Positions 1 through 11,020 of a DNA stretch of 64,000 nucleotides are shown piece after piece. Numbering within the stretch: the stretch's first letter is position 1; the number at the start of each line of letters is the position of its first letter. The notes below the pieces were generated by a model. It was not told where the DNA came from, searched no databases, and saw only the letters and a program-made list of their open reading frames with translations. A program made the position numbers and the translations under genes. This DNA comes from Pseudomonadota bacterium (lineage in GTDB: Bacteria; Pseudomonadota; Gammaproteobacteria; Burkholderiales; Rhodocyclaceae): contig JAFEFM010000540.1 in assembly GCA_018240585.1 (NCBI GenBank), positions 5,198 to 69,197 of the forward strand, read 5' to 3'.

Positions 1-1977
1 GCGGGCCGGGCGATCGGCAGCCTGCCGCCGCCTTCGCTGACGCTGCAGCAGGGACTGTGGCTGCTTGCCGCGGCCGGCGTCACACTTGCGCCTCACGCCG
101 GCTATCTGCCGTGGTGGATCATCGCCGCCTGCGCGTCCCTGCTGGGCTGGCGCGCGTGGCTGCTGTGGCAGCGCCGCCAGCCGCCGCACCGCCTGCTGCT
201 GTTGCTGCTCACGCTGGCCTGCGGTGTTGCGGTGCGACAGACATACGGGCACTTCTTCGGCAAGGATCCCGGCGTCGCGCTGCTCGCCCTGCTGCTGTGC
301 CTCAAGTTGCTCGAGATCCGCCGCTCACGGGATGTCCGCGCCGCCGTGCTGCTGTGCTTCTTCCTGCAGATGGCGGTGTTCTTCGAGGATCAGTCGCCGC
401 CGGTCGCTCTGGCGGCGCTGTCGGGCACGTGGCTTGCCGTCGTCGCGCTGCTTGCGCTGGCCGACCCGACCGCGGCGCACCGCGAACAGATGCGCACCGC
501 CGCGCTGCTGCTGGCACAGGGCCTGCCCTTCATGTTGATGCTGTTCCTGCTCTTCCCCCGCGTGCAGGGGCCGCTCTGGGGGTTGCCCGCGGATGCGGCG
601 AGCGCGCGCTCGGGCCTGTCCGACACGATGAGCCCGGGGTCCATCAGTGACCTGATTGCCTCACCCGACATCGCCTTTCGCGTCGAATTCAGCGGATCAC
701 CGCCCGAACCGTCGGCGCGCTACTGGCGCGGCCCGGTATTCACCCGCTTCGACGGACGCACCTGGCGAGCGGAACGACCCCTCGAGGCCAGCACGCCGTT
801 CTATACCCCATCCGGGCGCCGCTTCGACTACCGCATCACGCTCGAGCCTCACGACCAGCGCTGGCTGCTGGCGCTCGATTTCCCGGGTGCCGGTGCGGAC
901 GCTGGCGTGGGCCCGGTTCGCTTCACCAGCTTCGCGCAGGCGCTGCTGGCGCGCCCCCTGCAGAACCGCAGCCGCTTCGACCTCAGTTCCTGGCCTGACA
1001 CCACGACCGGCCTGCAGGACGCGCAAGCAACGCTGGCTGCTGCACTTGCCCTGCCAGACGGCGTCAACCCCCGCAGCCGCGACCTTGCCCGCCAGCTCGC
1101 GGCAGGCGCCGGTTCGGACGCAGTGATCTTGGAACGCGTCCTCGCCTACCTGCGCAGCAGCCGCCTCACCTACACGCTGAAGCCCCCTCTGCTCGGCCAT
1201 GATTCGGTCGATGAATTCCTTTTCGACGTTCGCCGCGGCTTCTGCGAGCACTTCGCGTCGGCCTTCACCGTGCTGATGCGGGCCGCGGGCGTGCCGGCAC
1301 GCGTGGTGGCCGGCTATCAGGGCGGCGAGATCAACCCGATCGACGGCCATCTCGTCGTGCGCCAATCCGACGCGCACGCCTGGGCGGAGGTGTGGCTTGC
1401 CGGGCGTGGCTGGGTCCGGGTGGATCCCACCGCGCTGGCTGCCCCTCAGCGCATCGAGGCCGGCCTGGCGGCCGCGCTGCCGGAAGGCGAGGCGCTGCCG
1501 CTGATGATGCGTCAGGATCTGGGCTGGCTTCGCAGCCTTCGTCACCGCTGGGAGGCGCTCGCCAATGCCTGGGATCAGCGCGTTCTTGGCTACAATCCGG
1601 AGAAGCAGCGAGAGCTGCTCGCGCGGCTGGGCTTCCGCGAGGTCGACTGGCCCCAGCTCGTCGCGATGATGTCGGGTGCTGGCCTGAGCCTGCTCGGCAT
1701 CCTGATGGCCTGGGCGAGCTGGCAGCGCCGGACGCGTGACCCGCTCGAACGAAGCTGGCAGACCTTCTGCAACCGACTCGCCCGCGCCGGTCATCCTCGG
1801 GCCCCCTGGGAAGGCCCGCGCGATTACGGCCGCAGGCTGGCCGCTGCCCTGCCCCGGCAGGCGGACGAGCTGCTGCGCCTCACCGAACTCTATGGGCGCC
1901 TGCGCTACGGCGCAGCCGCCGACCGCGCGGAGATCCGCGCGCTGAACCGACAGATACGCAAATTCGAACTGCAATGA
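1..1977 (+). CDS. tgpA: Transglutaminase-like membrane protein TgpA family (DUF3488 + transglutaminase core), 5'-partial
   Basis: Frame 1 is open from base 1. Multi-TM N-terminus; catalytic triad motifs GFCEHFASAF (Cys), DAHAWAEV (His), RVDPT (Asp). Confidence 0.85.
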   Translation, partial: AGRAIGSLPPPSLTLQQGLWLLAAAGVTLAPHAGYLPWWIIAACASLLGWRAWLLWQRRQPPHRLLLLLLTLACGVAVRQTYGHFFGKDPGVALLALLLCLKLLEIRRSRDVRAAVLLCFFLQMAVFFEDQSPPVALAALSGTWLAVVALLALADPTAAHREQMRTAALLLAQGLPFMLMLFLLFPRVQGPLWGLPADAASARSGLSDTMSPGSISDLIASPDIAFRVEFSGSPPEPSARYWRGPVFTRFDGRTWRAERPLEASTPFYTPSGRRFDYRITLEPHDQRWLLALDFPGAGADAGVGPVRFTSFAQALLARPLQNRSRFDLSSWPDTTTGLQDAQATLAAALALPDGVNPRSRDLARQLAAGAGSDAVILERVLAYLRSSRLTYTLKPPLLGHDSVDEFLFDVRRGFCEHFASAFTVLMRAAGVPARVVAGYQGGEINPIDGHLVVRQSDAHAWAEVWLAGRGWVRVDPTALAAPQRIEAGLAAALPEGEALPLMMRQDLGWLRSLRHRWEALANAWDQRVLGYNPEKQRELLARLGFREVDWPQLVAMMSGAGLSLLGILMAWASWQRRTRDPLERSWQTFCNRLARAGHPRAPWEGPRDYGRRLAAALPRQADELLRLTELYGRLRYGAAADRAEIRALNRQIRKFELQ

Positions 1978-3017
1978 AAAACTCCGTTCGCACCTCAATC
2001 GTCGCGTTCGCGCTCGTCACCGGCTCCTTCGCGACGGCCCTGCCAAGCACCGCGGAGGCGTCGTTCCTCGAGCAGGACGACGCACAGGCCTTCGTGCGCG
2101 AGATGGTCGAGAAGCATGGCTTCGACGCCGCGGCCGTCACTGCCGCGCTTGGCCTCGCCCAGCACGAACCGCAGGTGATCCGCCTCATCTCGCCACCGAG
2201 TCGCCCTGGCGTCCGCTCGTGGCAGAAGTATCGCGCGCGCTTCCTCGACCGACTGCGCATCGACGGCGGGCTGGCCTTCTGGGCGGAGAACGAAGCCGAC
2301 CTGCAGCGCGCCTCCGAACGCTACGGCGTGCCCATCGAGTTCATCGTCGCCATCATCGGCGTCGAGACCGTCTATGGCCGCAACACGGGCAATTTCGAGA
2401 CCTTGTCCGCACTGGCGACGCTCGCCTTCGACTACCCGCCGCGCGCATCGCTCTTTCGCCGCGAACTCGAGGCACTGCTGCTGCTCGCACGCGACCAGGG
2501 CCGCGCACCACAGAGCTTTTACGGCTCCTACGCCGGCGCGCTTGGCTATCCGCAATTCCTGCCCAGCAGCGTGCGCAATTTTGGCGTGGATTTCGACGGC
2601 GACGGCCACATCGACTTCGACGCCAGCCCGGCCGATGCGATCGGCAGCGTCGCCAACTACCTGCATGTGCACGGCTGGCGCAGCGGCGAGCCGGTCGCCG
2701 AGCGCGCGCGTTTCAGCGCCGTGGTGGATCCCGGACCGCTGGTGGCTGCAGGCATCGAGCCGAGCCTCGAACCCAGCGCGCTGGCCGACGCCGGCGTGAC
2801 GACGATCAGCGGTGCACCAGCGGCCGCCACCGCCACTCTCGTCGATCTCGTGACGCCGGGCGCGACCACCGAGTACTGGCTCGGCTACCGCAACTTCTAC
2901 GTCATCACGCGCTACAACCGCAGCAGCTTCTACGCGATGTCGGTATTCGAGCTGGCCGAAGCGCTGCGTGCGCGCCGCACCACCCAGCTCGCGCAACAGC
3001 CTGACGCCACCCGGTAG
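1974..3017 (+). CDS. mltB: Lytic murein transglycosylase B family (Slt35/SltB1-like; signal peptide without lipobox Cys)
   Basis: IIGVETVYG (catalytic Glu), GSYAGALGYPQFLPSS, DFDGDG EF-hand-like loop, YVITRYNRSSFYAM; ATGA overlap with the tgpA stop. Confidence 0.9.
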   Translation: MKNSVRTSIVAFALVTGSFATALPSTAEASFLEQDDAQAFVREMVEKHGFDAAAVTAALGLAQHEPQVIRLISPPSRPGVRSWQKYRARFLDRLRIDGGLAFWAENEADLQRASERYGVPIEFIVAIIGVETVYGRNTGNFETLSALATLAFDYPPRASLFRRELEALLLLARDQGRAPQSFYGSYAGALGYPQFLPSSVRNFGVDFDGDGHIDFDASPADAIGSVANYLHVHGWRSGEPVAERARFSAVVDPGPLVAAGIEPSLEPSALADAGVTTISGAPAAATATLVDLVTPGATTEYWLGYRNFYVITRYNRSSFYAMSVFELAEALRARRTTQLAQQPDATR

Positions 3018-4012: not shown

Positions 4013-4951
4013 TCAGAGCAGCGCGTCGCGGCCAATGCCACGACGCTTCAGGATGCGCCGCAACTGGCTGAGGGCCTCGAGCTGGATCTGGCGCACACGT
4101 TCGCGGGTGAGTTCGAGGCGCAGCGCGAGTTCCTCCAGCGTCAGCAGCTCGCATTCGTCGATGCCATAACGGTGCCGGATCACGAGCCGCTGTTTGTCGC
4201 TGAGCATCTTGATCCAGTCGCGCACGAGATGCTCGACCTCGGACGAGTGAATCTGAAGGTCGGGCGTCTCGACATGGTCGTCTGCCAGCGACTCGCCGAT
4301 CGACAGCGTCGGGTCGATGTCCAGTGGCGCATCGAGCGAGGCGGTGTGCTCGCTCAGCGCCAGCACCGCACGCACCTCCTCCACCGGCTTGTTCAGGCGC
4401 TGCGCGATGCCTTCCGGCGTCGACTCGCCATTTGAAGCAGCCTCCAGCGAACGCTGCGCACGCAGCACCTGGTTGAGCTCCTTCACGACATGGACCGGGA
4501 GCCGGATGGTGCGCGACTGGTTCATGATCGCGCGCTCGATGTTCTGCCGGATCCACCAGGTGGCATAGGTGGAAAAACGGAAACCGCGCTCGGGGTCGAA
4601 CTTTTCGAGCGCATGCATGAGCCCGAGGTTGCCCTCCTCCACGAGATCGAGCAACGGAATGCCGCGGTTAAGGTAATGCTTGGCGATATTGACGACCAGC
4701 CGCAGGTTGCGCTCGATCATCGTCTGCCGCGCAGCGAAATCGCCGCCGCGCACCTGCCTGGCCAGCCGCAGTTCTTCGTCGGGCGTGAGCAGCGGATTGG
4801 CGCCGATCTCGTTCAGATAGAGCTGCGTGACATCGCTGAGGAAGTCGTTCTCGACCGCCGGGCCCTGCTGCGGGCTGGCGAAGACTTCCACTTCCAGAGG
4901 AAGATCCGGCTCCTGACTTTCGAGATCGTCCAGATCGACCGGTTCTTCCAT
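4013..4951 (-). CDS. rpoS: RNA polymerase sigma factor RpoS
   Basis: Sigma70 regions ([44 protein letters not shown]); directly downstream of nlpD. Confidence 0.95.
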
Positions 4952-4962
4952 CCGTCACTCCT

Positions 4963-5853
4963 TCAGCGCGCCGGGAGATATTTCATCGGATCGACCGCCT
5001 TGCCCTGTTTGCGGATCTCGAAATGCAGTTTGGGGCGATCGGCTTCGGTGTTTCCAAGTTCGGCAATTTGCTGCCCCTTGGCGACGACATCGTCCTCCTT
5101 CACGAGCAGCTTCTGGTTGTGAGCATAAACGGAGTTGTACTCTTGGTTATGCTTGATCACAACCAGCTTGCCGTAGCCGCGAAGGCCACTGCCGGCATAG
5201 ACGACCTTGCCCGCCGCGGAGGCGTAAACCGGGTCGCCAGGGTTACCGGAGATGTCCACACCCTTGTTCGTGCTTTCGTTGAAACCGGCGATCGGCTTGC
5301 CCTTCGCCGGCCAGAGCCAGTCGCCATTGCCCTGCGCCGGCCCCACCGCCGGGGCAGCGGGCTGCGCCGGCTGGGGTGCAGCGCCGGCATTGAGCTTCGC
5401 CCATGCGTCATCCGAATACGGCTGGCGCCCGCCGAGCGGCGCCTGCTTGATCGGCACCGAGGCACCTTCACCGCCAGTGGGCGCAACCGGCGTGACCGCG
5501 ACACCGGAGGGGGCGACCGGAATCGCGGTGGCGACTTCGCCACCCGCCTCACCCGTACCCGGCGGCAGGACGCGCAGGCTCTGCCCCACATGGATCTGGT
5601 TCGGATCGGTGAGGCCATTCCATGCAACCAGGTTCGGAATCGTCTGCCCATACTGGCGCGCGATGCCGATCAGCGTTTCGCCCGGACGGACGACGTGCAT
5701 TCCGGCCGCCTGCGGCGCGGCAGCAGAAGGCGGCGCCCCGCCATCGCGTACCGGCGCGGTGACGCGCGACGCGCAACCGGACAACATGAGGACGGCAATA
5801 AGCAGCGCGGCCGTCGTGTGCTTTCGTTTCATGAATCGATCGAAGTGTTTCAT
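4963..5853 (-). CDS. nlpD: LysM/M23 peptidase lipoprotein NlpD
   Basis: Lipobox LSGC, LysM ([13 protein letters not shown]), C-terminal M23 domain; surE-pcm-nlpD-rpoS synteny. Confidence 0.92.
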
Positions 5854-6503
5854 TCCGTACCAGCAAGGAGCGGCACGAATCGAACCGCCTCGTGCCAGCT
5901 TTCCCTGAATATGTTTCCCTGTCGCTCGACGAGCAGCAGGCGCTGCTCCGCCGAACCTACCGGGACGATGAGACGACCGCCCGGCGCGAGTTGTTCCTTC
6001 AGTGCCTGCGGCAGGCCGATTGCGGCTGCAGCGACGATGATGCTGTCGAACGGTGCCGCTTCGGGCAAGCCCAGGCTACCGTCGGCAAGTTTCAGCCGTA
6101 CGTTGGGCAGTCTCAGCGGGCGCAGGTTGGCACGCGCCCGATCGAGCAAGGGCCGGATGCGCTCCACCGCATAGACCTCGTTGGCCAGTTGCGACAGGAC
6201 TGCTGCCTGATAGCCGCAACCCGCTCCGACCTCCAGCGTCTTGCCCAACTCGCGGCCCACGCGCAGCAACTCGATCATCCGCGCGACGACGAATGGCTGC
6301 GAGATCGTCTGCTGGAATCCGATCGGCAACGGCGTGTCGTCGTAGGCACTGTAAGCGAGCCCTTCCTCGACGAACTGATGACGCGGCACGCCCTGCATCG
6401 CAGCCAGCACCCGCTCGTCACGAATCCCCTGGACACGCAGGCGCTCGACCATGCGCGCACGCGCACGCGTTGCCTGTCCCGCGTCCGCACTGCGTATCGT
6501 CAC
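5850..6503 (-). CDS. pcm: Protein-L-isoaspartate O-methyltransferase
   Basis: [21 protein letters not shown]-binding motif, VRFVPL. Confidence 0.95.
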
Positions 6504-7243
6504 AGCTTCAACCAGTCGTTGACTGGCCCGATGAGGCCAGTATGGGTCAGATCCAATTGCAGGGGCGTGACCGACACGAAGCCGTTGGCCACCGCGTGGA
6601 AGTCCGTCCCTTCACCCGCATCGGCTGCCCCACCCGCTGCACCGACCCAATACACCGTTTCGTTGCGTGGGGTCACGCTGCGCACCACCGGTTCGGCCTT
6701 GTGACGCCTGCCCAGTCGGGTGACCCTGATCTCCCCCAGGTTTTCGTAGGGAAGATCGGGCACATTGACGTTGAGCAACACCGGCTGGCGGAACGGAGCG
6801 CGCATGAAGCGCTCGGCAAGATCGCGCGCGACTCTGGCCGCCGCCGAGAAATCGGACGCCGACTTGCTCACCAGCGACACGGCAATCGACGGCACGCCGA
6901 GCAGAAACCCTTCGGTGGCCGCCGCCACAGTGCCCGAATACACGGTGTCGTCCCCCATGTTGGCGCCATGGTTGACGCCGGACACGACCATGTCCGGAAG
7001 GTGGTCGAGCATGCCGGTGACGGCCAGATGGACGCAATCGGTCGGCGTGCCGTTCACAAAATGAAATCCGTTCGCGGCGCGCCGCAGCGACAGCGGGCGA
7101 TCCAGCGTGAGCGAGTTGCTCGCACCGCTGCGATCGCGCTCCGGGGCAACGACCGTGACCTCGCCGAGCGTGCCGAGCGCTTCCGCAAGCGCGGCGATCC
7201 CCGGGGCGAAATAACCGTCGTCGTTACTGACCAGAATGCGCAT
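6500..7243 (-). CDS. surE: 5'/3'-nucleotidase SurE
   Basis: Starts [10 protein letters not shown] at 7243; [26 protein letters not shown]. Confidence 0.95.
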
Positions 7244-7500
7244 TTCGAGTCCATGCAGAGCATTGACGAACACGGCGGATATGCAGATCCGCTCACTGAG
7301 AGGCGAAAATTCTAGCACAGGGAAACGAACTGTCCGGCGCGCCACCGCAGACAAGGGCCTGCGGGTCCTGCATTCGCCGTCTGCGTTGCTGCGCTTCCGC
7401 CCGTCGGCAGCGAGGCAGGCGGGCGCCGTCAGCGACACGCCCGTGCGCGAGGAAGGCGCCGCCTGTGAGGGGTCCCCTGCTCTGGCCGTTGCCAGCGGTG

Positions 7501-7530
7501 ATTTGAATCAATTATATTGTTCCAAATATT
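7501..7530. promoter_or_regulatory. AT-rich dyad element in the surE / antiporter divergent control region
   Basis: ATTTGAATCAATTATATTGTTCCAAAT: ATTTG...CAAAT outer arms and CAAT..ATTG inner arms in otherwise GC-rich DNA. Confidence 0.4.
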
Positions 7531-7623
7531 CCGAGCTCGACGCAGCTCGTATTTCCCAGCCGTCCCGCGCAAGGCGGGCGCGTGACGATCCTTCGACCGT
7601 CACCCCTAACTGGAACGCTTCCG

Positions 7624-8823
7624 ATGGATTTTCCTATCTGGCCCGACTGGCCACCCCGCTTCGGCGCACTCCTGCCGGTCGGCCTTGCGCTGATCCTGAC
7701 CGCCCTGGCTGGCGAGGCCAGCCGGCGCGCCAGGCTCCCGACGGTCAGCGGCTATGCAGCCGCCGGACTGCTGCTCGGTCCCGTGCTGCTCGGTTCCTTC
7801 GATGCGTCGGAACTGGCTGGCTATCGCAGCGCACTCGAGCTGTGCCTGGCGCTGCTGCTGTTCGAGCTGGGCATGCGCCTCGACGTGCGCTGGTTCAGCG
7901 CCAACCCGTGGCTGTTCGCGACCAGCCTGGCGGAGATCGCCCTCAGCTTCCTGCTGACGTTCTCCGCCCTGCAGGCAATCAGCGGCGACACGATGCTCGC
8001 CCTGGCCATCGCGGCGATATCGGTCGGCACTTCGCCGGTGGTCGTGATGCGGGTCGTGGCCGAACAGCGGGCCAGCGGACAGGTGACCGATCGCCTGCTG
8101 GCGCTGTGCGCCCTCAACGCAGCGGCATCGGTCGTGCTTCTCAAGCTCGTGATGGGCGGGTTGCATGGCGTCCATGGCGGCGGAGGCATCGCGCTGCTGC
8201 ATCCGCTCTATCTGCTCGTCGGCTCCATCGTGGGCGGCATGCTGATCGCCGCCGCATATGCCGGATTGCGCAAGATCGTCGGCGCCGAATCCGAGCAGGG
8301 CCCTGCAGCGACCATCGCCCTTCTGGTCGTGGCCGTTGCGGTGCTGCACGCACTCAGGCTGCCGCTCGCACTCGCGCCATTGATCGGCGGCGCACTGGTG
8401 AGATGGCTCGACCCCCGGCCCCATCTGTGGGCTTCACAGTTCGGCAGCGTGACCAGCACGCTGGTGATCGTCGCCTTCATCCTGGCTGGCGCGACTGCGA
8501 ACCTGAGCCACCTGGCTCTGGGCGCAGGCCTTGCCCTCGTGGCGATCGCCGCACGGGCCCTCGGCAAACTCGGCGGCACGCTCGCCTTCGGCGACCGCAG
8601 CGGTCTGGATCGGTCCAGGAGTTTCGCGCTCGGCATGGCGCTGATGCCGCTTTCCGTGCTGGCCCTGCTCCAGGTCGAGGACGTCCGCCAGGTTTTTCCG
8701 GAATTCGGCGAGCGCATTCAGGCAGTCGTGCTCGCAATGACGGCGGTACTGGGCGCGCTCGGCGCCATCGCCACGCGCTGGGCGCTGTTGCACAGCCGTG
8801 AAAGTCGTATCGGAGACAGGTGA
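7624..8823 (+). CDS. Cation:proton antiporter (CPA)-fold membrane protein, no RCK/KTN domain
   Basis: About 12-13 hydrophobic segments; [15 protein letters not shown] and ARALGK match CPA-family motifs. Start MDFPIW chosen at 7624. Confidence 0.8.
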
Positions 8824-9950
8824 TGAGACTCGAATCGTTCGCGCCATCACGCGCATTGTCCATCGGCGTGGAACTGGAGCTGCAACTGGTCGGCACCCAT
8901 GATTACGATCTCGCGCCGGTGGCGGAGGACTTGCTGCGCGCGTTGTCACGCACCGAACTGCAGGGTGACATCAAACCCGAGATGACCTGCTCCATGATCG
9001 AGCTGTCGACCGGGGTCTGCGACCAGTACGAGACGATCTGCGCGCAGCTCGAATCCCTGCGCGACGCGCTCGGGTCCGCAGCGCGCCGGCTCAATGTGGG
9101 CATCTGCGGTGGCGGCACCCACGCCTTCCAGAACTGGGGCGAGAGGCGCATCTTCGACGGCCCCCGTTTCCAGTATCTGTCCGACCTCTATGGCTACCTC
9201 GCCAAGCAGTTCACCGTGTTCGGGCAGCACGTGCATGTCGGCTGCCCCAGCCCCGACATCGCGCTCTACCTGCTGCATGGGCTTTCACGCTATATCCCGC
9301 ATCTGATCGCGCTGTCCGCCTCCTCGCCATTCGTCCAGGGACAGGACACCGGGTTCGAATCCGCGCGGCTCAACTCCGTACTCGCCTTCCCGCTTTCCGG
9401 CCGCGCACCCTTCGTCGACAACTGGCGTGATTTCGAGCGCTACTTCGAGAAGATGGCCAGCACCGGCGTGGTCAGCAGCATGAAGGATTTCTACTGGGAC
9501 ATCCGCCCCAAGCCCGAGTACGGGACGATCGAGATCCGCGTCATGGATACCCCGCTGACGGTGCAGCGGGCAGCCGCCGTGGCCGCCTACATCCAGACCC
9601 TGGCACGCTATCTGATGATCGAGCGGCCGCTGCGGCTCGCCGAGGACGATTACCTCGTCTACACCTTCAATCGTTTTCAGGCCTGCCGCTTCGGCTACCA
9701 AGGCGTCTATGTGCACCCGGAAACGCACGAGCACACGCCGATCGCCGAAGCGATCGCATCGAGCATCGAATGCATCGAACAGCACGCCATCGAGCTCGGC
9801 ACCGACGCAGTGCTCGCCGGTCTGAGGGCCGACGCGCTCGCCGGCCGCAACGACGCCCGCTGGCTGCGCGCGCAGCATGAGGACGGGGCGCCGCTGGCCG
9901 AAGTGGTGATGGCCCAATGCACGCGCTGGGCGCAGGGAGGCGCGATGTGA
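8823..9950 (+). CDS. ybdK: YbdK/GCS2-family carboxylate-amine (glutamate--cysteine-type) ligase
   Basis: [45 protein letters not shown]; TGATG overlap with the upstream stop. Confidence 0.88.
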
Positions 9951-10729
9951 GCCGCCAGCCGCTGCGCATCGGCCTGTCGGCCCGCCTGATGCACAGCCCG
10001 CCGGCCGAACTCGGCTTTCCGGGCAAGACGCTGCAGTACCTCGAGCAATCGATGGCGCACTGGATCATGTCCCACGGTGCGCTGGCGCTCATGGTCCCGA
10101 CCATCGGCGAGCACCTGGGATTGCGGCGCGCGCAGATCTCGGTGCGCGACTATGTCAGCAGCCTCGACGGGCTGGTGCTGCAGGGCGGCGCGGACGTGAG
10201 CCCGTCGACTTACCACGAGGAGGCCCTGCGGCCGGACTGGACCGGCGATCGCGTGCGCGACCTCTACGAGATCGAACTGCTTTGGGAGTTTGTCATCCAG
10301 GGCAAGCCCGTTCTGGGCGTCTGCCGCGGGGCGCAACTCATCAATGTGGCCTGTGGCGGCACGCTGTGGCAGGACATCACGGAATATGTGCCAGGAGCGA
10401 TCGCACACCGCAGCGAGGACCTCTACGATCGACACTACCACTGCGTCGACTTCGCGCCCGGCAGCCGGCTTGCGAATCTGTACCCGGAGCGCACGGGCGG
10501 CCGCGTCAACAGCATCCACCATCAGGCTGTGCGCGAACTTGGCGCCGACCTGCAGGTCGAGGCCCGCTCGGCGGGTGACGGCGTGATCGAGGCGATCCGC
10601 TGGCGGGGCTCCAGCTACCTCTTCGGCTGCCAGTGGCATCCCGAGTTCCAGCGCGGAGACGGCGATCTGCTGGACGGCAGCCCCATCATGCAGGACTTCC
10701 TCGAGGCTGCGGAACACGCACGCGCGTGA
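9947..10729 (+). CDS. Gamma-glutamyl-gamma-aminobutyrate hydrolase-like (peptidase C26, class I GATase)
   Basis: GGAGG RBS then GTG overlapping the ybdK stop; [15 protein letters not shown] (Cys), NSIHHQ, QWHPE (His-Glu). Confidence 0.88.
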
Positions 10730-10857
10730 TCGCAGTCACACCCCAGAACGCGACCGATTCCGTACCGGAGCGCTATGAGGATCGAACCGCTGGGGCACGC
10801 CCGTCATCCCCGCGGCGCCCTGCAAGGCTCATCCCACCTGCGGCCTCAAATGCGGGC

Positions 10858-10942
10858 GCCCCCAATCTGGCCCCCAAACCAAAATCGGCGGAGGAAAAGC
10901 AAAAAGGCCAGTCTTTCGACTGGCCTAAGTGCTTGATTCTAT
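10858..10942 (-). other. att-arm-like scar downstream of tRNA-Pro (IHF site, hairpin, direct repeats)
   Basis: AATCAAGCACTTA on the minus strand at 10926-10938 matches WATCAANNNNTTR; GGCCAGTC-TTTC-GACTGGCC hairpin with T-tract on minus; GCCCCCAA repeated at 10858 and 10870. Confidence 0.5.

Positions 10943-11020
<78 letters not shown>

Follow-up and report, generated by a model that had tools for sequence, protein, structure and literature searches.

The ATP-dependent carboxylate-amine ligase YbdK has been without an established physiological substrate since its crystal structure appeared in 2004, and it may be regarded as an orphan enzyme. Membrane proteins of the cation:proton antiporter (CPA) fold are better understood: in NhaP, NapA and NhaA two canonical aspartates are indispensable and bind the cation that is transported, and other proteins of this fold work with ancillary subunits, KefF and KefG serving KefC and KefB, and KhtT serving KhtU. 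The published idea closest to the system described here is that of Iyer, Burroughs and Aravind (2008, PMC2588565), who described in proteobacteria a carboxylate-amine ligase family encoded beside a glutamine amidotransferase (GATase)-like thiol peptidase, and who predicted that the two, a GCS2-sized ligase and a GATase-like peptidase, make glutathione-like peptides. Here we analyse a stretch of 64,000 nt from a Pseudomonadota bacterium of the Rhodocyclaceae (GCA_018240585.1, an assembly in 543 contigs; contig JAFEFM010000540.1, positions 5,198 to 69,197 of the forward strand), which we refer to as the window and in whose positions all coordinates are given. It carries a module of three consecutive genes that encode a CPA-fold membrane protein, a YbdK-family gamma-glutamyl ligase and a Peptidase C26 gamma-glutamyl hydrolase (Table 1). 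The open-access full text yielded no study of this pairing or of the physiological YbdK substrate, and the module is an uncharacterised arrangement of known families.

The invariant core of the module consists of two genes, those for the membrane protein and for YbdK, which are predicted to be co-translated, with the C26 gene as a frequent, optional third. This result comes from a sample of 41 relatives (25 of them from the same genus), a class-level sample of 300 genomes, and the 80 best YbdK loci on named genome contigs, which were taken for the partner counts. The genome search used a loose first pass, membership of the transporter subfamily was defined by a profile score of at least 416 bits, the YbdK clade in the class sample was delimited at an identity of at least 54%, and adjacency was counted from tblastn coordinates, as greedy calling of open reading frames is noisy in high-GC loci. 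Because related Burkholderiaceae contribute many of the 80 loci, these counts are not independent of one another, and the genome samples are phylogenetically non-independent as well. Among the relatives, YbdK is encoded in 9 genomes, including 5 of the same genus, and a CPA-fold gene lies directly upstream of ybdK in all nine. The transporter subfamily is found in exactly these nine genomes and in none of the other 32, with 310 bits for the next best profile match and about 55 bits for ordinary Kef-like proteins; the simple hypergeometric odds for such a distribution, which ignore shared ancestry, are about 3e-9. The same pattern is seen at the level of the class, where YbdK occurs in 5 of the 300 genomes and the transporter subfamily in exactly those five (0/295 in the remainder), and where the partner lies upstream in all five, and directly so in four out of four genomes further to the nine relatives with a YbdK at or above the identity limit. 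Adjacency is likewise complete in the named Burkholderiales loci (80/80). The module is found in organisms that can be handled well in the laboratory, such as Paraburkholderia, Burkholderia, Aromatoleum and Azoarcus, which makes it accessible to genetics and metabolomics, and the closest named relatives of the cassette in the window are those of Aromatoleum and Azoarcus (Rhodocyclaceae/Zoogloeaceae).

The association extends beyond this group. Ten farther members of the transporter family (262-323 bits) were sampled, nine of which lay on informative contigs, all of them metagenomic, and in eight of these nine ybdK follows directly downstream of the transporter gene. Since the flanks of these loci are unrelated and their GC content ranges from 31 to 68%, they argue that the link between the two genes is selected, and not a matter of chance inheritance. 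The spacing is tight throughout: 44 of 84 transporter-ybdK junctions overlap or are separated by at most 20 nt, and the rest by at most 171 nt, except for two artefactual estimates (in one no stop was found, in the other the start was misplaced). In one locus (G030:C12:89118-90308) the partner transporter gene contains a single in-frame TAA, which could reflect a pseudogene or a sequencing error. A first-pass annotation of this DNA, made from the sequence alone, had proposed that the three genes form one uncharacterised system and had named rare co-occurrence as the observation that would speak against it. Co-occurrence is anything but rare for the transporter and ybdK, and a conserved unit recurs in every related locus examined, so that the core of the proposal holds; its three-gene form needs revising to a two-gene core, next to which the C26 gene is found in some of the Burkholderiales only, being unlinked or missing in other lineages.

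The C26 gene adjoins the pair on its downstream side in 19 of the 80 named loci, and it is adjacent in 6 of the 9 YbdK-positive relatives; one family has the altered order C26-CPA-ybdK. When mapped onto the YbdK tree, its adjacency requires at least six changes of state, three of which are forced by well-supported branches. Where it is not adjacent it is usually encoded elsewhere: an orthologue (237-330 bits, 49-59% identity) is present unlinked in 21 of 27 YbdK-positive genomes without adjacency, and likewise on a separate contig in the genome with the interrupted transporter gene (G030:C13:131309-132088), and these unlinked copies have no conserved neighbours beyond close relatives. Among the relatives, the orthologue occurs in 8 of the 9 genomes with YbdK and in none of the 32 without it, and in the class sample it is found in two genomes only, both YbdK-positive, apart from one farther match of 186 bits elsewhere. 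The C26 subfamily is thus phyletically tied to the pair, yet not obligatory.

The membrane protein has the CPA fold but is an atypical representative of it. Its only Pfam match is to PF00999 (Na_H_Exchanger, E 6e-26), and it fails the CPA2 model TIGR00932 (34 bits, cut-off 238). The AlphaFold2 model (predicted local distance difference test, pLDDT, 91; predicted template modelling score, pTM, 0.90) has the 13-helix fold of the NhaA/NapA type, with Foldseek matches at a probability of 1.00 to NapA, PaNhaP and KefC; the best are NapA (4bwz) and PaNhaP (4cz8), at a TM-score of about 0.7, with SOS1 and NHA2 also found and KefC (8bxg, 8by2) lower down. The Pfam analysis detects no KTN/RCK domain in the protein, which is nearly all membrane domain; representatives of the family are about 400 amino acids long. 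In the family profile, TSP aligns to the TDP motif, and L-N-(A/T) to the N-D motif of PaNhaP and to that of NHE1. The first canonical Asp position is occupied by Ser in 44 and by Ala in 4 of 48 YbdK partners, and the second by Thr, Ser, Cys, Ala, Val, Leu, Asn or Met, and in none of the 48 by an acidic residue, whereas E81 (aligned to Glu73 of PaNhaP), E104, R311 and K315 are kept. Six more distant family members aligned to the profile also lack both aspartates; the more distant members that were aligned comprise four linked to YbdK, one uninformative and two without an adjoining ybdK gene.

Because both canonical Asp positions are replaced in the 48 partners, it is unlikely that the protein acts as a gated K+/H+ exchanger. 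The first-pass annotation had suggested, by analogy with the gating of KefC by glutathione, that a gamma-glutamyl conjugate might gate the transporter or be its cargo; the analogy with KefC is weakened by the replacement of these aspartates and by the missing KTN/RCK domain, which is where glutathione binds in Kef proteins. The group to which the protein belongs is sizeable, with 987 representative clusters at E ≤ 1e-30, nearly all of about 400 amino acids. As all members examined (48 linked and 6 distant) are without the residues that define cation/proton exchange, the routine annotation of this family as cation:proton antiporters is probably wrong. A further feature of the linked proteins is the loop motif G-Q-V/L-T/S-D/E-R (residues 152-157), which is conserved in YbdK-linked members and absent from two unlinked sisters. 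The positive-inside rule, applied to the model, puts this loop where the crossing helices end on the cytoplasmic side, and it is a possible contact site for YbdK, a lead that comes from a small sample. One sister protein without the aspartates and without YbdK (about 299 bits; locus L136, G195:C8, 5280-6485) is encoded between genes for phenylalanine hydroxylase and an aminotransferase on one side and for methylcrotonyl-CoA carboxylase and HMG-CoA lyase on the other, which is a setting of amino-acid catabolism.

The assignments of the two soluble proteins, like that of the membrane protein, agree with the first-pass annotation, whose families are borne out by the Pfam and NCBIfam scores and whose claim of intact active sites is upheld by conservation among homologues. 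Gene 2 matches GCS2 (PF04107) at E 1e-56 and passes the NCBIfam YbdK equivalog NF010040 with 588 bits against a cut-off of 425, and it aligns over its full length with the solved YbdK proteins of Salmonella and E. coli (1tt4, 1r8g; E 1e-103 to 1e-105). The sequence GVELELQ, which corresponds to the GhExE Mg/ATP signature as defined in PMC2588565, and the E/H/R motifs downstream of it are invariant in 8 homologues. Gene 2 is predicted to encode an active ATP-dependent ligase of the gamma-glutamyl type, and it is the sole GCS2 gene of the genome. Gene 3 matches Peptidase_C26 (PF07722) at E 1e-52 (179.5 bits, cut-off 20.5) and class-I GATase (PF00117) at E 2e-12, and it fails the PuuD equivalog (85 bits, cut-off 266). 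Its nearest solved structures are Lin1909 (3fij), followed by a P. aeruginosa protein (7d4r) and PuuD of E. coli (6vtv). All of 31 orthologues keep the triad of Cys126, His231 and Glu233 (counted from the GTG start), which aligns to the motifs CRG.Q and HPE in C26 proteins of known structure; the product is predicted to be an intact cytoplasmic gamma-glutamyl hydrolase.

That YbdK might simply be the main Glu-Cys ligase of this organism was considered and rejected, because the genome has a canonical gshA-gshB pair at another place; the first-pass annotation had listed this identity among the findings that would count against its proposal. Gene 2 also fails the glutamate-cysteine ligase equivalogs, with at most 256 bits against cut-offs of at least 395 (256 against 409 for one of them). 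The genome contains no GshA of the PF04262 type, and the GshA beside gshB is of the PF08886 type, which is present in 10 of 12 tested genomes, including same-genus genomes without the cassette. The gshA gene in question is split over the ends of contigs C525 and C538, so that absence calls in this 543-contig assembly need care. In another gammaproteobacterium (locus L141, G196:C35, 1010-3873) a YbdK-like GCS2 gene of 49% identity and without a CPA partner is separated from gshB by about 800 bp that include a Rieske gene, and the YbdK-like gene may be the real gshA of that organism.

The genes around the pair vary. In the Burkholderia, Paraburkholderia, Caballeronia and Trinickia loci (L038-L099), ybdK is followed by genes for a MarR regulator, a class-I GATase (237 amino acids, PF00117, with a weak C26 match), an old-yellow-enzyme NADH:flavin oxidoreductase and a SET-domain protein, and mnmC and cobW lie upstream; this neighbourhood may reflect a redox/electrophile theme, or merely synteny within the clade. 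The distant pairs (L188, 4001-7275; L194; L195; L192; L193) have varied third genes. Their neighbours include an MscS-type mechanosensitive channel followed by Tae4/Tai4, a gene of 395 amino acids without a Pfam match beyond which a cyanophycin synthetase gene lies on the opposite strand, a NUDIX hydrolase gene that overlaps ybdK, CorA and rhodanese genes upstream, and an MtN3/SWEET-like gene that overlaps the start of the transporter gene.

As a working explanation we tentatively favour, at a little less than an even chance, a solute carrier coupled to ATP-dependent gamma-glutamylation in the cytoplasm, with the hydrolase as an optional means of release or recycling. The membrane protein would carry a small solute of the amine or amino-acid type, and not exchange Na+ or K+ for H+. 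At the cytoplasmic face, YbdK would use ATP to join this solute to the gamma-carboxylate of glutamate, which would either trap an imported solute or make the form that is exported. The C26 protein would cleave the gamma-glutamyl amide, free the solute and recycle glutamate, and would in this way set the size of the pool. A common substrate, the direction of transport and contacts between the proteins are what we infer from the sequences. Several points weigh against such a scheme, the main difficulty being that a ligase and a hydrolase acting on one bond in one compartment waste ATP unless they are regulated. The hydrolase is, moreover, dispensable for the core function, because its orthologue is missing from 6 of the 27 tested YbdK-positive genomes and its gene is adjacent in none of 8 distant transporter-ybdK pairs, although this dispensability fits a role in salvage or reset over that of an obligatory step. 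In addition, three YbdK-like genes at 42-49% identity in the class sample have no CPA partner, and, to judge by the E. coli map, the ybdK genes of E. coli and Salmonella are not known to have a CPA-fold partner or a C26 neighbour. The top 150 family representatives include no fusion of transporter and ligase, two longer members (534 and 685 amino acids) having no GCS2 domain; the contrast in the loop motif is based on two unlinked sisters only; and we know of no proven organic-solute carriers in PF00999. One could also speculate that the two core proteins are coupled more directly, the ligase docking at the conserved cytoplasmic loop and gamma-glutamylating the solute as it passes through the Asp-less carrier. 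We consider this ligation-coupled transport a rather unlikely variant; if true, it would be a mechanism resembling group translocation that has not been described for any transporter family, and it would reveal the true substrate of the orphan YbdK enzymes.

A more specific version of the favoured scheme has cysteine as the common substrate. YbdK would then make gamma-Glu-Cys, either as a second route used under particular conditions or to buffer free cysteine, which is toxic, C26 would degrade gamma-Glu-Cys or glutathione, and the membrane protein would move cysteine, gamma-Glu-Cys or glutathione. A model for the hydrolase would be plant GGP1, which degrades these same compounds. Gamma-glutamyl:cysteine ligation is the one activity that has been reported for YbdK (Lehmann 2004). 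The position of a YbdK-like gene beside gshB in one gammaproteobacterium (49% identity), two YbdK-positive genomes without PF08886 gshA, and the redox/electrophile-type neighbourhood of the Burkholderia pair, where MarR, class-I GATase and old-yellow-enzyme reductase follow, all point towards thiols; that neighbourhood, however, occurs in a single clade, where it may reflect inherited synteny. Since gshA-gshB is already present in this and in most YbdK-positive genomes, since the E. coli enzyme reportedly performs Glu-Cys ligation weakly, and since the glutamate-cysteine ligase equivalogs score far below cut-off (256 against 409), we regard the thiol version as unlikely. The same adjacency and frequent stop-start overlap that suggest stoichiometric co-production could instead mean, in line with the gating idea of the first-pass annotation, that YbdK is an ancillary subunit, comparable to KefF/KefG or KhtT, of a channel-like carrier for ions or solutes, which the product or the nucleotide state of the ligase would gate and for which C26 would reset the ligand. 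Such a model would make sense of a membrane protein without a regulatory domain of its own and of a cytoplasmic loop motif specific to YbdK-linked members, and KefC does bind glutathione (PDB 8by2). The catalytic residues of YbdK, however, are fully conserved, as expected of an enzyme and not of a mere scaffold, no KTN/RCK domain is there to take a glutathione-type ligand, the loss of the cation-binding aspartates makes a Kef-like K+/H+ activity unlikely, and fusion proteins are absent from the representatives inspected; we consider the regulatory-subunit model improbable.

Two further explanations fare worse. The match of the C26 protein to PF00117 and the presence of a different class-I GATase two genes downstream of ybdK in Burkholderia would be compatible with a glutamine-dependent amidoligase, in which C26 is the glutaminase subunit and hands ammonia to YbdK for the amidation of a carboxylate. 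Its match to Peptidase_C26 is far stronger, however, and the characterised C26 members known to us are free-standing gamma-glutamyl hydrolases; as in most YbdK loci the C26 gene is either missing or encoded at a distance, unlike the genes of obligate amidotransferase subunits, this arrangement is highly improbable. Least probable of all, and in our estimate close to negligible, is the absence of any functional link, the genes being held together by inherited synteny only. The many loci from related Burkholderiaceae could suggest as much, but lineages of 31-68% GC have the pair within otherwise unrelated surroundings, one family shows another order of the genes, phyletic co-occurrence is perfect in two samples, and the genes move as one block.

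This last point is illustrated by the same-genus genomes. In nine of them that are without the genes, surE (which matches up to about 7245-7261) lies about 100 bp from tRNA-Pro (which matches from 10941), and the stretch between these limits is therefore a clean presence/absence difference; in three others (G006, G019 and G012) the block is found at the same site. Divergence of the cassette tracks that of its flanks in the two genomes compared over long flanks (G006 and G019), and the stretch held in common with Aromatoleum covers positions 7623-10724 only, at 75-76% DNA identity and with different flanks. The whole block is gained or lost together, and no flanking direct repeats or mobile-element signature were found around it.

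Table 1 Features of the module and its boundaries in the window
Feature	Position	Strand	Basis
Gene 1, CPA-fold membrane protein, 399 amino acids, 13 predicted helices	7624..8823	+	PF00999
Gene 2, YbdK-family ATP-dependent carboxylate-amine (gamma-glutamyl) ligase, 375 amino acids	8823..9950	+	NF010040, GCS2
Gene 3, Peptidase C26/class-I GATase-fold gamma-glutamyl amidohydrolase, 260 amino acids from GTG	9947..10729	+	PF07722
Promoter-like site TTGCCA-18-TATATT, about 105 nt 5' of gene 1	7489..7518	+	Consensus scan, 10/12 matches, weak
3.7-kb presence/absence block, leader and three genes	7262..10940		Same-genus comparison
tRNA-Pro(GGG), downstream boundary of the block, outside the module	10943..11019	-	ARAGORN, Rfam tRNA

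Within the cassette, the open reading frames and the sequence confirm the co-orientation and the overlaps that had been read from it. At TGATG (8821-8825) the stop of gene 1 (TGA, 8821-8823) and the in-frame ATG of gene 2 (8823-8825) have one base in common, and at GTGA (9947-9950) the in-frame GTG of gene 3 (9947-9949) overlaps the stop of gene 2 (TGA, 9948-9950). Shine-Dalgarno-like sequences precede both starts by 8 nt (GGAG, 8811-8814, for gene 2; GGGAGG, 9934-9939, for gene 3). The most likely start of gene 1 is the ATG at 7624, at which close homologues begin, an alternative GTG at 7582 being likewise open; for gene 3, an ATG at 9917 is open besides the GTG at 9947. In the leader no Rfam riboswitch or leader RNA family was matched, the sole Rfam match being the tRNA, and the PADLOC models of anti-phage defence gave no matches for the three proteins. 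A GC-rich hairpin with a 9-bp stem (10905-10926) lies between the C26 stop and tRNA-Pro; it has a terminator score on the minus strand only, and it may end the plus-strand operon too, though without a T-run on that side. The minus strand upstream carries surE, pcm, nlpD and rpoS (4013-7438), and downstream the tRNA is followed by pheT. Farther upstream the window begins with a TgpA-like transglutaminase gene (1-1977; TgpA_N, Transglut_core, DUF4129), truncated by the window start, after which comes an SLT_2 lytic transglycosylase gene (1974-3017).

The pair offers a concrete handle on the substrate of YbdK: in a large clade the enzyme is locked to one membrane protein, and phyletically to one gamma-glutamyl hydrolase, so that an orphan enzyme becomes part of a testable three-part system. 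Its ligase belongs to the same equivalog family as YbdK of E. coli and Salmonella (1r8g, 1tt4), with which it shares a full-length alignment and the catalytic motifs. The module resembles the Puu and Spu systems (PuuA-PuuD, SpuA) in combining an ATP-dependent gamma-glutamyl ligase with a C26 hydrolase that removes the group; its ligase, in contrast, has the GCS2 fold and is not of the glutamine-synthetase type, no oxidase or dehydrogenase step is present, and its constant partner is a dedicated membrane protein. A Puu-like catabolic pathway was accordingly rejected, in view of the PuuD score (85 against 266) and of the gene surroundings, where, as the first-pass annotation had stated for the cassette itself, no oxidase, dehydrogenase or glutamine-synthetase-type ligase is found among the neighbours from surE to rpoS and at tRNA-Pro/pheT. 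With KefC/KefB and their partners KefF/KefG, and with KhtTU, the module has in common the CPA fold, the overlap of the membrane protein gene with that of a soluble partner, and the theme of gamma-glutamyl thiols; it differs in that its membrane protein is without KTN/RCK domain and ion-binding Asp and scores 34 against 238 bits with TIGR00932, and in that an ATP-dependent ligase takes the place of the quinone reductase or RCK protein as partner. The membrane protein is like NapA and NhaP (4bwz, 4cz8) in its 13-helix architecture, in the Glu of the motif in transmembrane helix 3 and in the Arg/Lys of helices 10/11, but without the Asp of the TDP and of the ND/DD motifs. The system of PMC2588565, finally, involves a separate ligase family, and that paper names no antiporter partner (the word 'antiporter' has 0 occurrences in it).

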